DNA from: a virus
Reading direction: 5' to 3' (one strand)
Virus genome (UHGV): UHGV-0091782
Length of the DNA: 38,471 nucleotides
Below, piece after piece: positions 589 to 5,038 of this stretch (its first letter is position 1; every line of letters begins with the position of its first letter). Made by a program: the position numbers and the translations under genes. The notes under the pieces were generated by a model. The model saw nothing but the letters and a program-made list of their open reading frames with translations, searched no databases and was not told the origin of the DNA.

Positions 589-677
589 TATAAGAATCCG
601 CTTCTAATTCAAAGCATTACCCCATCAACACTGCGCTCACACGTCCCACCACATCAAAACATGTAAAGCCTTGCAAG

Positions 678-788
678 TCATTGCGAGGCCTTATGTGTCT
701 CAGTTTTGTCCCACCTTGTATTACGACTTGCATAGCCAATGAAGATAAATGTGACAACAAACGGCGCAGCAGTCTTCTTTTCCTTCAT
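678..788 (-). CDS. Candidate small hydrophobic protein (36 aa, MKEKKTAAPFVVTFIFIGYASRNTRWDKTETHKASQ)
   Basis: Hand-translated ATG 788..786 to TGA 680..678; GGTGGGGAAAG Shine-Dalgarno-like motif 2-12 nt upstream; lies downstream of the HEPN-like gene and a perfect palindrome; below the ORF-track size cut-off. Confidence 0.25.
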   Translation of the reverse strand: MKEKKTAAPFVVTFIFIGYASRNTRWDKTETHKASQ

Positions 789-947
789 ACTTTCCCCACC
801 CAGCATGCATACCTTCTACCATAACTGTAGTGAATGTCTGTTATGAGCGAACAGCAGAAGTTCGGAATAAATACTGACATAGACGTGTTTTCTTGCGGTG
901 GCCAGTTTTTGTTGACCACTTCATTGTACCTAATCTTGGAGGTTGAT

Positions 948-977
948 CAGTTAACCCTCATTTTTGCGGGTTAACTG
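948..977. promoter_or_regulatory. Perfect 10-bp inverted repeat CAGTTAACCC-N10-GGGTTAACTG (hairpin or protein-binding palindrome), no flanking U-tract
   Basis: Read directly in the sequence, 62 nt downstream of the stop of the 1039-1971 ORF on the minus strand. Confidence 0.35.
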
Positions 978-1038
978 AAGTTAGGCTTACTGTGTATAGA
1001 TAAAACAAACGTTTTTCCAAGTTACCTTAGAAAAAGCC

Positions 1039-1971
1039 TTAAGTTAGAAGCCGTTCCTCGTAATCGTCGGTTGTGGGCATTTTTCCGATCTCTGTCATGC
1101 GACACACTAATCGGGATAAAAGCACTCGTACCTCAATTATATGCTCAACTAAAAAGTTATCTGACGTAGCTCCCCCATGCACTGCCTTCGAACGGTAGTC
1201 ATACAGCTTCTTAACCCTACGATAGGTGGCTAAACGATCAGGCCCTCGCTCCTCAAGATATGCTGCAGCCATAAGAGCAAGACGAAAACGAAGCTCTGAA
1301 TTGATTCCAAAGAGCGCTTCAAATCCTGCCCATAAAGCAGCAGCAGCCATTCTCAAATTCGCGTGTTGGTTATGAGTTGTTAAAGAATCAATAGCGAGCC
1401 GGAATGCTGGTTGCTCTAGCAAATCTATCCAACGCTTGAGATTCTCTTGAACCCAGTCGAGAGACTCTACTGATATCTCTACACTTGGGCTTATTCTCCG
1501 AACTGCCGGCACGTCCTCAAGAAGTTGGACTTCACACGAGTTGGCTTGAAGAGCAGGGAATACATCCCAAGATGCACTTGCTACTGCAGGAACAAGTATA
1601 TCGGTGAGTGTGCGGCATCGGATCGCGGATATGATCCACCATCCGATAGTCAGGTCTGATTGAGAAAATTTCGACTCACTGCTTTGCAACGCAAGCTCAT
1701 GCGTAACTGCGGGCATATGACGAGCAACAGCGCTGAGTAGCGACTTGCTCTTAAGCGCTTTGGCTAACTCTATCTCTCCTGGTGGATGAAGTACCTCCCT
1801 TAATTCACCTACGTCTTGGAAAACATAAGGCCCGTTTCGAAACGTCAATCCTGACAAAGCGAAACAGATCTCATTCTGACTGGATAAACTAGATATTCGA
1901 GTTGCAGCGTATTTCTTGCGAGACTCGAAGTAGTTAAGTAAACCTGACAATTTTTCTTTGTTGATTTCCAT
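1039..1971 (-). CDS. Hypothetical cargo protein (310 aa) with a C-terminal HEPN-like R-x4-H motif (YDYRSKAVHGG); candidate RNase-type abortive-infection or toxin effector
   Basis: ATG at 1971, TAA at 1039-1041; motif RSKAVH near the C-terminus fits the HEPN Rx4-6H consensus; no resemblance to phage structural or replication families; located in the att-proximal moron region. Confidence 0.45.
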   Translation of the reverse strand: MEINKEKLSGLLNYFESRKKYAATRISSLSSQNEICFALSGLTFRNGPYVFQDVGELREVLHPPGEIELAKALKSKSLLSAVARHMPAVTHELALQSSESKFSQSDLTIGWWIISAIRCRTLTDILVPAVASASWDVFPALQANSCEVQLLEDVPAVRRISPSVEISVESLDWVQENLKRWIDLLEQPAFRLAIDSLTTHNQHANLRMAAAALWAGFEALFGINSELRFRLALMAAAYLEERGPDRLATYRRVKKLYDYRSKAVHGGATSDNFLVEHIIEVRVLLSRLVCRMTEIGKMPTTDDYEERLLT

Positions 1972-2043
1972 ATTCCCAAGCTTAGAATTTTCGCTATTGT
2001 GTACCGTATATTACACAATAGCTTAGTTAGGGCGTAGGCGTCC

Positions 2044-2120
2044 GCTTTTGGCACATAGCAGCCCTAGAGACAGTGGCGTAAAGTCATGGAGAATCGGTGG
2101 GAGGATATTCAGTTTCATTC
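2044..2120 (+). other. Degenerate tRNA-Pro-like module, copy A (more decayed copy of the 4034-4120 element)
   Basis: Shares the 20-nt block gcttttggcacatagcagcc (2044-2063 versus 4034-4053) and a decayed ...gtcatgga-gaatcgg-tgggagga-tattca tail resembling the tRNA-Pro anticodon and T-arm. Confidence 0.3.
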
Positions 2121-2159
2121 ATGCCGAAATACGGTAAAATCTATAACAGATAGAAATCA

Positions 2160-2756: not shown

Positions 2757-3740
2757 TCATTTTTGTTTTAGCTTGATAATTTCCGATATTATGTTTGTTA
2801 GCTTTGAATCTGAAAGATTCTGCAGTCTATCTTTCTCAATAGAAACTGTAGTCTGTCCCTTTTCTAATATGAAATTTCTTTCTGTCTTCATCAAGTGCAT
2901 AGCCAACTCTTTTATCATATCTTCGCTCTTGAACTCTTGAACATATTTTAATGACATAACTTTCATCTCAATATTTGTAATTTCATTTTGAAAATATTTA
3001 ATCTCGTCAAACCCATTTTTATAGAGACGCAGAAAGAAATAAGCAAACAGCTCAACAACAATTACAAATGACAATTTAGGAAGGTGATGAATAAAAAAGT
3101 CCAAACCATCTACTATGGCTGGAGCGCTGTAAAGAAAATAAGCAAGGAATAATATCCCTGTTAACGCAATTGTAGTTCCGATTGCAAGGTTAACCCCACC
3201 TCGTCGATTGAGCCTGTCAATTTCGGACTCTAATCTTAGAACCATATCAGTATGGAGTTTGTGTAAGCTATAGCTTTTCTTAAAATTTGATATATCGGTC
3301 TTTAGGCTACTATCTGCCAAGAGTATTGTGTTTCCAATTATTCTTTTTTTTGCATCGGATATTAATTTATTTCTTTCGCTTTCCGTTAATTCAACTGAAA
3401 CCCCAGAAGACGACTTTTCTTCAACCTCAGTCAACCTTCTATGTAATCTCAATATCTCCTTGTGAAGAATATGGCTCGTTCTTTCAATACTTCTACCGCC
3501 AATCCCTTTATTTAGATAAGAGGTCATCGCAGTAAAAAAAATGCCAAGGAATGTCGCAAAAACTGACAAGTATAAAAAGAACCTCTTTTTCTCGCTTATA
3601 ACTTCTAATAGTGCTAATGATGAAGCTTGAACATTTGAAAACAAAAACAAAAGCACTAAAAAAATGGCTATAAACATTGTTGCTATAGTAATAAAATGTT
3701 TTCCTGAAAGATAAATTATAAAATCAATAATATTTTTCAT
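2757..3740 (-). CDS. AT-rich membrane protein (327 aa): predicted 4 TM helices, two on each side of a charged coiled-coil segment; candidate superinfection-exclusion or abortive-infection effector
   Basis: ORF track; hydrophobic stretches near residues 15-35, 54-75, 183-205 and 222-240; G+C visibly far below the phage core; bracketed by the 72-bp repeats and tRNA-Pro-like modules. Confidence 0.55.
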   Translation of the reverse strand: MKNIIDFIIYLSGKHFITIATMFIAIFLVLLFLFSNVQASSLALLEVISEKKRFFLYLSVFATFLGIFFTAMTSYLNKGIGGRSIERTSHILHKEILRLHRRLTEVEEKSSSGVSVELTESERNKLISDAKKRIIGNTILLADSSLKTDISNFKKSYSLHKLHTDMVLRLESEIDRLNRRGGVNLAIGTTIALTGILFLAYFLYSAPAIVDGLDFFIHHLPKLSFVIVVELFAYFFLRLYKNGFDEIKYFQNEITNIEMKVMSLKYVQEFKSEDMIKELAMHLMKTERNFILEKGQTTVSIEKDRLQNLSDSKLTNIISEIIKLKQK

Positions 3741-4038
3741 TTTATTTTCATCCCGAAGTGATTTTGGGTAAAATAATTGAAAAGATGATAAATTGCAAGA
3801 TTCACATTACTATTTAATTTAAAATGACTATACTTCTCCGTACATTGATATCCAATCTTAGACGGGAAAAACTTCTTAGTCAGCTAAAGCCAATGCTACC
3901 CTTTCTATCGAATCCCCCTCTGATCTAACATATACAAGCGTCAACCCATCGGCAGTGATAATTCTATGAGGATGCCTAAAAACAAGCCCCTGAGGTGCTC
4001 CCCGCTCATTAAGACAATACATCTTGCAACTCTGCTTT

Positions 4039-4120
4039 TGGCACATAGCAGCCTTCATGGCAGTAGCACTCCGTCATGGGGTGTCGGGGGTCGGAGGTTC
4101 AAATCCTCTCGTGCCGACCA
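4039..4120 (+). tRNA. tRNA-Pro(GGG)-like sequence: 3' 50 nt (4071-4120) canonical and ending CCA, 5' half divergent with a disrupted D-arm; probably a pseudo-tRNA or att fossil rather than a functional gene
   Basis: ccgtcatggggtgtcgggggtcggaggttcaaatcctctcgtgccgacca matches my recollection of E. coli proL from the anticodon arm to CCA; upstream part tggcacatagcagccttcatggcagtagcact is only partly tRNA-like (acceptor 6 of 7 pairs, D-stem does not fold). Confidence 0.35.
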
Positions 4121-4130
4121 AAAACCCCTT

Positions 4131-4160
4131 AAAAACCAGCCTATTATGGCTGGTTTTTTT
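4131..4160 (+). terminator. Rho-independent terminator (stem ccagcc/ggctgg, 6-nt loop, 7-T run; A-run upstream makes it potentially bidirectional)
   Basis: aaaaaccagcctattatggctggttttttt directly after the tRNA-Pro-like CCA end. Confidence 0.6.
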
Positions 4161-4627
4161 ATGATTGTTTTTTATGCGGAGAAATACCGGGGAATAATTG
4201 GGGTAAAACACCTTGAGGCTATTCACTTAGCCTACCACCATCAAAATCTTTCCGAATGTATCCATCTCTTTTTTCTTATGCAGCTAAAACGAAGTCTTGA
4301 TACTGTTTATTTACACAGATAAGAATAATACTGTCTACAAACGCAGTACAAAAGAAGTGTTATGCATATTGAGATCTCCATAGCCAAAGACAAAATGACC
4401 AAATGCCAAACGGCGCTGTGGACGCGTTAAAGGAAGAATTAACCCAACACATTGGCAAGCGTTATGACGATGTGGAGATGATCGTAAAAGCCACCAGCAA
4501 CGATAGTTTTTCAGTTAGACATACTGCAGATAAAGATTGAGCTAAAACTTTCGTTCAGGAAACTCTGAATGATACCTGAGAGTCTACTGAAGAGTTGTTT
4601 GTTCACTAGTTAGCACGTAGGAAATTA

Positions 4628-4699
4628 TTCAATACTCGCACTATCGAACATTCACCAGCCAACCGCAGCACCTTCTTGCATGCGACGAGCCTGCGGTTT
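4628..4699 (+). repeat. 72-bp direct repeat, copy B (partner of 2160-2231)
   Basis: ttcaatactcgcactatcgaacattcaccagccaaccgcagcaccttcttgcatgcgacgagcctgcggttt; contains stem ccgcag/ctgcgg followed by a T-rich tail. Confidence 0.6.
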
Positions 4700-5038
4700 C
4701 ATTTATCTCCGACCGGAAACTTCTTATACAAAGTTGACACACCAACATCATAGATAATCGCCACCTTCTGGCGAGGAACTCCTGATGCAATTAATCGCCT
4801 GGCCTACGCCCATTATTCAGGGGTAAATTTGGGACGGCAGCCCCCAATTCCATCCTCAGTTCTCCCTCGCACTGAGGAGTAGTAAGTGCAATTATTTAAA
4901 AAATCGCAAACAGAATATTATTATTTATTCTTGCATTCTGTTAATTAAAACTACACATAAAAACGTTGATACTTGATAAGTAAGTAGAGTATTATTAATG
5001 GTTTTAATAACGAACCTTTTAATTATGAGAAGCCTCAA

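Follow-up and report, generated by a model that had tools for sequence, protein, structure and literature searches.

Two independently mobile single-gene cassettes, candidates for defence or exclusion, in the cargo slot of an SfV/e14-like thrW prophage

The virus genome UHGV-0091782 (38,471 nucleotides; hereafter the window, meaning the whole stretch of DNA analysed) contains, at positions 600-5038, an interval that is the att-distal cargo slot of an SfV/e14-like prophage integrated at thrW. The slot holds two intact genes, one encoding a HEPN-domain protein and the other a four-pass membrane protein (Table 1), which are probably two independent single-gene candidates for defence or exclusion that move among prophages, satellites and a Vibrio array. 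Support for such a role is moderate for the HEPN gene and weak for the membrane gene; for both, the anti-phage activity, its trigger and its target are matters that we only infer. What the analysis establishes is the anatomy of the interval, the mobility of the two genes and their independence from each other, the HEPN fold with its motif, and the conservation of the sequences. An earlier note on this DNA, made from the sequence alone, had described the interval as one candidate locus for phage defence or exclusion. Both intact genes stand as credible candidates, and the HEPN gene has been predicted as such independently, but the two do not form one system, being apart in most of the genomes that have either.

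The HEPN gene is present in 27 of 5,426 Escherichia coli genomes and the same allele of the membrane gene in 11, so that 16 HEPN-positive genomes lack the exact membrane-gene allele. Two of these 16, STEC1587 and CP55_Sichuan, were inspected. In both, the sequence at 836-2059 recurs with 99.0% identity in a lambdoid prophage, with replication-region genes (YdaT, DUF977) on one side and hokD-rem-DUF968-rusA-Q on the other, and the flanks are wholly different beyond both ends. The cassette includes a single open reading frame (ORF) and two inverted repeats, and the four nucleotide differences between the thrW and lambdoid copies of the gene are all synonymous. The upstream edge of the cassette (2041-2059) corresponds to the first 19 nt of a tRNA-Pro-like element and is kept in the lambdoid copy (locus L023, 8003-8021); the sequence comparison suggests that the lambdoid copy derives from a context in which the gene stood beside a tRNA-Pro or tRNA-Pro-like sequence. 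As to the two repeats, the palindrome noted earlier downstream of the gene is real, with arms one base pair longer than the 10 bp claimed and with a spacer; it is not a canonical intrinsic terminator because it lacks a T-run (U-tract). The second repeat, upstream of the start codon, had been missed. It is possibly an operator or a promoter-overlapping site, a putative function that, again, we only infer.

In none of the seven contexts examined does the HEPN gene have a conserved partner: it is always solo, with different neighbours. For instance, a homologue in Enterobacter hormaechei has an FRG-domain gene as its neighbour at the distal end of a P4-like satellite, and further solo homologues reside in a thrW islet in E. 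cloacae and in chromosomal islets in Pseudomonas and Paraburkholderia. Homologues are also found on seven IMG/VR viral contigs.

This distribution bears on the possibility that the HEPN gene, a small hydrophobic ORF of 36 amino acids next to the att copy and the membrane gene constitute one multi-gene defence system, with an RNase effector and membrane or peptide partners. Such a system is hardly credible. The three ORFs do share the minus strand within 3.2 kb, 11 genomes carry both the HEPN gene and this membrane allele, the two genes are side by side at thrW in all four loci inspected, the window included, and one IMG/VR contig has both. However, 16 of the 27 HEPN-positive genomes are devoid of the membrane allele, and in the two inspected the gene is found at another prophage position, where the small ORF is absent too. 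Relatives of the membrane protein occur without the HEPN gene in 54 other E. coli genomes, and alone also in Enterobacter and Vibrio; the HEPN and membrane genes are 785 bp apart, with an att scar in between; and the segment that contains the small ORF is present in thousands of genomes having neither gene.

The small ORF itself had been counted as part of the proposed locus. It is present, and it is preceded by a Shine-Dalgarno-like box, but it belongs to a phage-end segment that is conserved and lies outside the mobile HEPN cassette, and nothing connects it with the HEPN gene. Positions 601-840 have matches in 3,728 of the 5,426 complete E. coli genomes and are annotated in none; the segment also adjoins the icd' copy of an e14-like prophage, and 400-868 is 97% identical to the corresponding region of strain CFE299, which carries different cargo. 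Across six homologous copies of the ORF, two are identical to that of the window, three are diverged but intact (loci L021, L038 and L040) and one is frameshifted (L039). The identical copies (L002 and L003) are uninformative because the loci are 100% identical to the window there. The substitutions in the diverged copies are mostly synonymous, and three copies read past the stop codon, yielding 43 amino acids. No family match was found for this ORF, which may encode a genuine small protein, so far unannotated, at the ends of e14/SfV-type phages.

The HEPN protein combines an N-terminal alpha/beta domain of ~160 residues, which has no known fold, with a C-terminal HEPN domain. The HEPN-type R-x4-H motif recognized earlier in the minus-strand gene is RSKAVH, and its R260 and H265 are invariant in 42 homologues with 41-88% identity, in keeping with the Rx4-6H signature of HEPN ribonucleases. 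Also invariant are S261, V264 and G266, as well as P64, E66, E68, E92, W111, R118, E152, D153 and P155 in the N-terminal domain. The structure model is confident, with the all-alpha helical bundle characteristic of HEPN, and the top fold matches are HEPN proteins; a Foldseek search of the Protein Data Bank (PDB) with the model gave nothing at E < 1, and profile searches of PDB sequences gave nothing relevant. A word-indexed search retrieved 220 homologues, and an exhaustive profile search 3,744 cluster representatives at E ≤ 1e-3, including 180 at E ≤ 1e-30. The family, nearly all members of which are 300-320 amino acids long, spans Enterobacterales, Pseudomonas, Burkholderia, Planctomycetota and Acidobacteriota, and corresponds to PHROG 28161, the function of which is unknown. 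A split, two-gene version of the protein, considered on account of half-length matches of ~160 amino acids, was dropped: the one match checked, from a metagenome contig of 995 bp, is apparently a fragment.

The earlier note had called the locus undescribed, which is correct only in part: the exact protein, WP_042058399.1, is listed as a 'Predicted novel defense gene' in Table S10 of DefensePredictor (2026), with a mean log-odds of defence of 9.43 against a strict cut-off of 4; this listing is a prediction only, and neither the protein nor its cluster accession was found in the other supplementary tables of that study, including the transcription units chosen for testing. The best remote HHblits match given in the same table is PD-T7-4/DUF4145, with a probability of 63.8 over 29% of the protein. 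This remote similarity is below any membership threshold, and no PADLOC model matches at E ≤ 0.1. The HEPN protein, already flagged computationally, is a reasonable candidate for a new family of solo defence proteins of the HEPN type.

The closest parallel is HepS (Gifsy-1 STM14_3211; PDB 9OIJ/9OIK), a solo HEPN abortive-infection protein from a lambdoid accessory position, which is inactive by default, is triggered by the tail-tip protein J and cleaves tRNA anticodon loops. Both are partnerless proteins with a single HEPN domain, an Rx4H motif, a prophage accessory position and widespread, often prophage-borne homologues, and in the two genomes inspected the HEPN gene follows the lambdoid replication genes, a position comparable to that of hepS. 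However, no sequence or Foldseek similarity between the two proteins is detectable. Furthermore, the motif of HepS is R100-H105 in a shorter protein, whereas that of the HEPN protein is at 260-265, behind the N-terminal alpha/beta domain. Given the lack of homology and the differing architecture, we do not place the HEPN protein in the HepS family. Other HEPN-containing systems are no closer: for the C-terminal domain of AbiA, AbiV, HepT of HEPN/MNT and Csm6/Csx1, there is no match to the Pfam HEPN clan or to PADLOC here, and, in contrast to these systems, the HEPN protein is not accompanied by an MNT, CARF or polymerase partner, either as a domain or as a neighbouring gene. In particular, no nucleotidyltransferase gene was found nearby in any context examined, and the 1,224-bp unit consists of one ORF.

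By analogy with HepS, that is, following a logic shown experimentally for an unrelated solo HEPN protein, the HEPN protein could be a stand-alone abortive-infection ribonuclease. Its C-terminal domain would dimerize to form the R260/H265 active site, which would stay inactive as long as the conserved N-terminal alpha/beta domain has not detected a phage product; thereafter the HEPN domain would cleave tRNA or mRNA, and phage production would stop. A role other than defence, be it as a toxin-like addiction or stabilization module or as a phage-lifecycle RNase acting during induction, to the benefit of the mobile element, appears unlikely. No antitoxin-like ORF adjoins the gene within the 1,224-bp unit, the neighbours vary in every context, and a toxin without an antitoxin has to be inactive by default, which is the HepS-type solution to abortive infection; in addition, DefensePredictor scores the protein as defensive. 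Should the defence function of the HEPN protein be confirmed, a large unannotated family, with neither a Pfam nor a PADLOC model, would join the self-contained sensor-effector HEPN defences, its N-terminal domain would represent a new phage-sensing module, and the 1.2-kb cassette would be one that already hops between prophage types.

The membrane gene is carried by an AT-rich cassette with a mobility of its own. The cassette at 2481-4045 is 75% identical over 1.6 kb to one that, in lambdoid prophages at yjjG, is flanked by int and an AlpA-like xis gene. Solo relatives of the gene lie between int and xis in lambdoid prophages, including those of the UTI89, S88 and APEC O1 lineages, and in Enterobacter a relative stands alone between icd and int. 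In Vibrio vulnificus, the relative is a lone same-strand gene among short genes, with neighbours that differ from strain to strain, in what looks like a superintegron cassette array. Altogether, 884 homologues were identified, mostly in Enterobacterales, Vibrio, Alteromonas and Pseudomonas; the family is PHROG 5157, of unknown function. Among 72 IMG/VR loci of the membrane protein, 35 are within 4 kb of the end of a viral contig, as are 19 of the 22 loci of the closest relatives. This distribution is as expected for a stand-alone exclusion or abortive-infection factor. The protein is common in prophages of pathogenic E. coli, such as the three lineages above, and entirely uncharacterized. Its accessions were not encountered in the portions of the DefensePredictor tables searched, which carries no weight in either direction. 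A distant homologue of 367 amino acids in Ectopseudomonas khazarica (L019, 6647-9827) is followed by two unannotated same-strand genes (251 and 309 amino acids) within an integrase-bearing element, which may be a multi-gene variant of the family.

The description of the product as an AT-rich-encoded coiled-coil protein with four transmembrane (TM) segments holds: the DNA around the ORF has 27-37% GC, and the protein has four hydrophobic segments, at about residues 16-36, 53-76, 181-203 and 219-240, and a long helical linker. Analysis of hydropathy, combined with the positive-inside rule, predicts a cytoplasmic location for the N terminus, for the coiled coil of 100 residues and for the C-terminal domain. 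The conserved core (residues 169-302) consists of a helix, TM3, a short periplasmic loop and a TM4 that contains the invariant P221 and E230, followed by the motifs 'YFQNE.TN' and 'TERNF.L.KGQ.T'. Among close E. coli alleles, residues 169-260 are ~95% identical, whereas residues 1-75 are only 33% identical, and the remainder is about 90-95% identical; many distant viral homologues align solely with residues 169-327. This pattern of sequence variation points to an N-terminal module that is swappable or fast-evolving. More tentatively than for the HEPN protein, we propose that the membrane protein might oligomerize via its cytoplasmic coiled coil, that the TM3-TM4 hairpin with the buried E230 might stop phage DNA from entering at the inner membrane or depolarize the membrane upon infection, and that the hypervariable N-terminal hairpin might set the specificity.

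Membrane-associated exclusion and abortive-infection factors of prophages include RexB, SieA/SieB, T4 Imm, ZorA-type MotA homologues and SLATT effectors. The membrane protein resembles these in the general respect of being a small multi-pass inner-membrane protein carried as prophage cargo, but no homology to them was found, nor was any RexA- or ZorB-like partner gene in the membrane-gene contexts examined. With respect to the MotA/ExbB/ZorA families, Pfam MotA_ExbB matched none of the 45 family members searched, ZorA2 touched one of the 45 (E = 0.0055), and no MotB/ExbD/ZorB-type partner was detected. SLATT_1 matched 1 of the 45 (E = 9e-4), with none at the curated cut-off.

Such a dissimilarity to any known defence protein is what would be seen if the membrane protein were lysogenic-conversion or host-fitness cargo, involved in envelope stress, transport or signalling and unrelated to phage exclusion. 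The same slot carries O-antigen-modifying membrane proteins, for instance that of the neighbouring oac, and non-defence genes are numerous in integron cassettes and at prophage ends. We consider this explanation less likely than not, given that solo int-adjacent and att-adjacent positions are typical of exclusion and defence cargo, that a hypervariable N-terminal hairpin next to a core conserved at 95% among close alleles fits a protein engaged in an arms race and that the protein, mostly cytoplasmic by mass, has no enzyme-like domain.

Several results weigh against the interpretation of the two genes as defence or exclusion candidates. The region upstream of the HEPN gene shows no consensus sigma-70 promoter. 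Pfam, including the HEPN clan, and NCBIfam gave no match for the HEPN protein, 41 relatives and 10 remote relatives; Pfam gave no consistent match for the membrane protein among the 45 members; and with PADLOC 2.0, neither protein matches at E ≤ 0.1, and the 87 family members (42 and 45, respectively) are without a consistent match. The earlier statement that the ORFs cannot be assigned to a characterized system agrees with these searches. The overall validation rate of DefensePredictor is 45%. The model of the membrane protein is of moderate confidence only (predicted local distance difference test, 73.9; predicted template modelling score, 0.43), with generic coiled coils as its fold matches. 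More generally, genes carried by prophages can have other uses, in addiction, lysogenic conversion or host fitness. Both proteins are found on IMG/VR contigs, yet tblastn searches with the two against 50,697 GenBank phage records returned no match. On balance, the reading as two independent candidates remains the one we favour, and it is conceivable, if doubtful, that one of them, or each, is the founding member of a new anti-phage family of the single-gene kind: an HEPN RNase gated by a previously unseen N-terminal sensor or, the more novel case, a new type of membrane-level device for exclusion or abortive infection, with an E230 core and a hypervariable hairpin.

The stretch that carries the two cassettes is identical to the chromosome of E. 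coli Es_ST80_L1_NDM_10_2017 (NZ_CP031215.1) from position 2,311,221, and the RefSeq annotation of the window corresponds to a complete SfV/e14-like prophage at thrW, with a Mu-type baseplate, sheath and tube, an HK97-type head and a P27-family small terminase subunit, along with lambdoid lysis, Q, replication and immunity genes. The integrase gene, at the far end of the window, abuts the tRNA-Thr gene thrW, which is followed by proA. The 3' end of thrW has only two matches within the window, at 543-567 and, inside the thrW gene, at 38436-38460. The former belongs to the partial thrW copy that marks the distal boundary of the prophage and differs at 2 of 46 positions from the 46-nt core published for SfI and SfV; a 46-nt thrW att core has been published for SfI, SfII, SfV and SfX, and in SfV-type phages, the O-antigen modification genes adjoin attP. 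The att copy and the placement of the integrase and thrW identify 600-5038 as the att-distal part of the prophage, flanked by the att copy and the oac/tail-fibre module; an oac-type acyltransferase is encoded next to the slot, at 5039-6064.

RefSeq annotates in this interval only an HEPN-domain protein, a hypothetical protein, a 'tRNA-Pro', a DinI-like pseudogene and a helix-turn-helix (HTH) pseudogene, the latter two of which the earlier note had omitted; neither RefSeq nor Pfam indicates a core phage function, in line with what that note had claimed.

Its view of the position as an att-proximal cargo hotspot is likewise confirmed by the variable content of the slot among relatives. Between the same flanks, strain CFE299 carries two other genes of unknown function, and further relatives carry yet others. 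These alternative occupants (L021, 5949-6728 and 7058-7978; L040, 1779-2549; L039, 1881-3020), encoding proteins of 259, 306, 256 and 379 amino acids, had no match in Pfam or PADLOC. The slot looks like a reservoir of uncharacterized cargo and, every occupant examined being without a Pfam or PADLOC match, is a practical place for cargo mining. The slots of SfV-, SfI- and e14-type prophages share with it the position from the att core to the tail-fibre module, the 46-nt thrW core and the oac-type acyltransferase, whereas the present slot contains, beyond oac, two genes of unknown function and a scar of exchange with a proL-integrating sister phage. In prophages of these types, gtrABC and oac adjoin attP, and the cargo slot of e14 carries mcrA.

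Overall, the slot is a mosaic of at least five unrelated modules with separate histories, filled by recombination, in which the two gene cassettes are intact and the rest consists of scars and pseudogenes (Table 1).

Table 1. Features of the att-distal cargo slot and its boundary in the window
Feature	Coordinates	Strand	Basis and remarks
Partial thrW copy with 46-nt att core, distal prophage boundary	543-588	-	Sequence match to thrW 3' end
Conserved phage-end segment adjoining att, outside both gene cassettes	601-868		Genome comparison
Small hydrophobic ORF, 36 aa, MKEKKTAAPFVVTFIFIGYASRNTRWDKTETHKASQ	678-788	-	Inside phage-end segment; GGGGA Shine-Dalgarno-like box upstream
Mobile single-gene HEPN cassette, 1,224 bp	836-2059	-	Genome comparison
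Inverted repeat, perfect 11-bp arms, 10-nt spacer	947-978		Inside cassette, 61 nt past HEPN stop codon
HEPN-domain protein, 310 aa, WP_042058399.1	1039-1971	-	N-terminal alpha/beta domain and C-terminal HEPN domain, R260-x4-H265 (RSKAVH)
Inverted repeat, perfect 11-bp arms	1993-2022		Inside cassette, 22 nt upstream of HEPN start codon
Junction scar: decayed tRNA-Pro-like copy (2041-2127) and repeat copy 1 (2153-2231)	2041-2231	+	Repeat comparison
AT-rich single-gene cassette of four-pass membrane protein	2481-4045	-	Genome comparison
Four-pass inner-membrane protein, 327 aa, WP_042058396.1	2757-3740	-	Hydropathy, structure model
Hybrid tRNA-Pro-like att junction	4039-4120	+	Decayed insertion-bearing 5' part; 3' 58 nt (4063-4120) match proL
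Intrinsic terminator after tRNA-Pro-like element	4131-4158	+	11-bp stem, then T-run
DinI-like pseudogene	4362-4579	+	RefSeq: frameshifted, internal stop
Repeat copy 2 (4621-4699) and truncated HTH pseudogene (4699-4863); fixed inner slot flank	4621-4863	-	RefSeq and repeat comparison

The direct repeats do bracket the membrane gene, as stated earlier, together with a tRNA-like element and the dinI pseudogene, but they are 79 nt long with 85% identity, not 72 bp. The two decayed tRNA-Pro-like modules (2041-2127 and 4031-4120), also correctly recognized at the outset, are 70% alike and have the derived 5' sequence GCTTTTGGCACATAGCAGCC in common. RefSeq labels the 82-nt element within the second module as tRNA-Pro, as it does at the corresponding site of about ten other genomes, and neither ARAGORN nor Rfam (E ≤ 1) recognizes a tRNA there; as a control, ARAGORN detected the genuine proL in locus L020 (5982-6058). 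Given that its 3' 58 nt match proL and its 5' part is a decayed copy, this element is a hybrid.

From 4063 to 5100, the window agrees at 99.8% identity with the end of a sister prophage that occupies the genuine proL (yejM-proL) of strain T309.Ta3. In that prophage, a dinI pseudogene at the corresponding position and an HTH pseudogene bear the same flags as their counterparts in the window, the oac product shares its protein accession with the one here, and a gene for tail-fibre assembly is present. The near-identity of the two prophage ends indicates that tail-end modules move between thrW- and proL-integrating phages, leaving pseudo-tRNA scars. The inner flank formed by repeat copy 2 and the HTH pseudogene is common to CFE299 (93.6%) and T309.Ta3 (99.8%). 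In CFE299, the counterpart of 2040-2231 (82% identity) runs straight into the HTH pseudogene and oac, and the module composed of the tRNA-like sequence and its flank is therefore the ancestral inner edge of the slot. Folding of the 2041-2231 scar is no better than that of shuffled sequence, and Rfam searches over 400-5100 yielded chance-level matches only. The most plausible view of the repeats and the tRNA-like modules is that sister phages integrating at thrW and at proL left them behind as scars when exchanging DNA and that they are not functional parts of a system; annotation pipelines call the tRNA-like scars tRNA genes.

The abundance of pseudogenes and att scars around the two genes (dinI', HTH', int' and tRNA-like copies) could be taken to mean that the whole interval is decaying junk and that both ORFs are non-functional remnants. 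This is most improbable: neither ORF is truncated, and each can be aligned over its entire length with hundreds of homologues; the HEPN protein does not vary between genomic contexts, the nucleotide changes being synonymous only, and its model is highly confident.

Among the minor elements of the slot, the 45-amino-acid DinI remnant matches Pfam DinI with E = 1.7e-7. A 118-amino-acid ORF at 3966-4322 was rejected, as it overlaps the tRNA-like element and is not supported by Pfam. To the left of the att copy lies a truncated P4-type integrase gene (50-388) that retains the Arm-binding domain only, and, further left, a MarR gene and then the vat autotransporter toxin gene. This integrase remnant and the vat/MarR island indicate that several elements are arrayed in tandem at thrW; the corresponding place in APEC20/16 is taken up by an intact P4-like satellite. 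On the other side of the slot, an intact ORF of 316 amino acids (6501-7451, minus strand) combines an StfP-like N terminus with a glycine-rich C-terminal domain. RefSeq marks only 7145-7451 of it, as a truncated stfP pseudogene, and leaves the remainder unannotated; at the matching place in CFE299, a separate 'glycine-rich domain-containing protein' is annotated.

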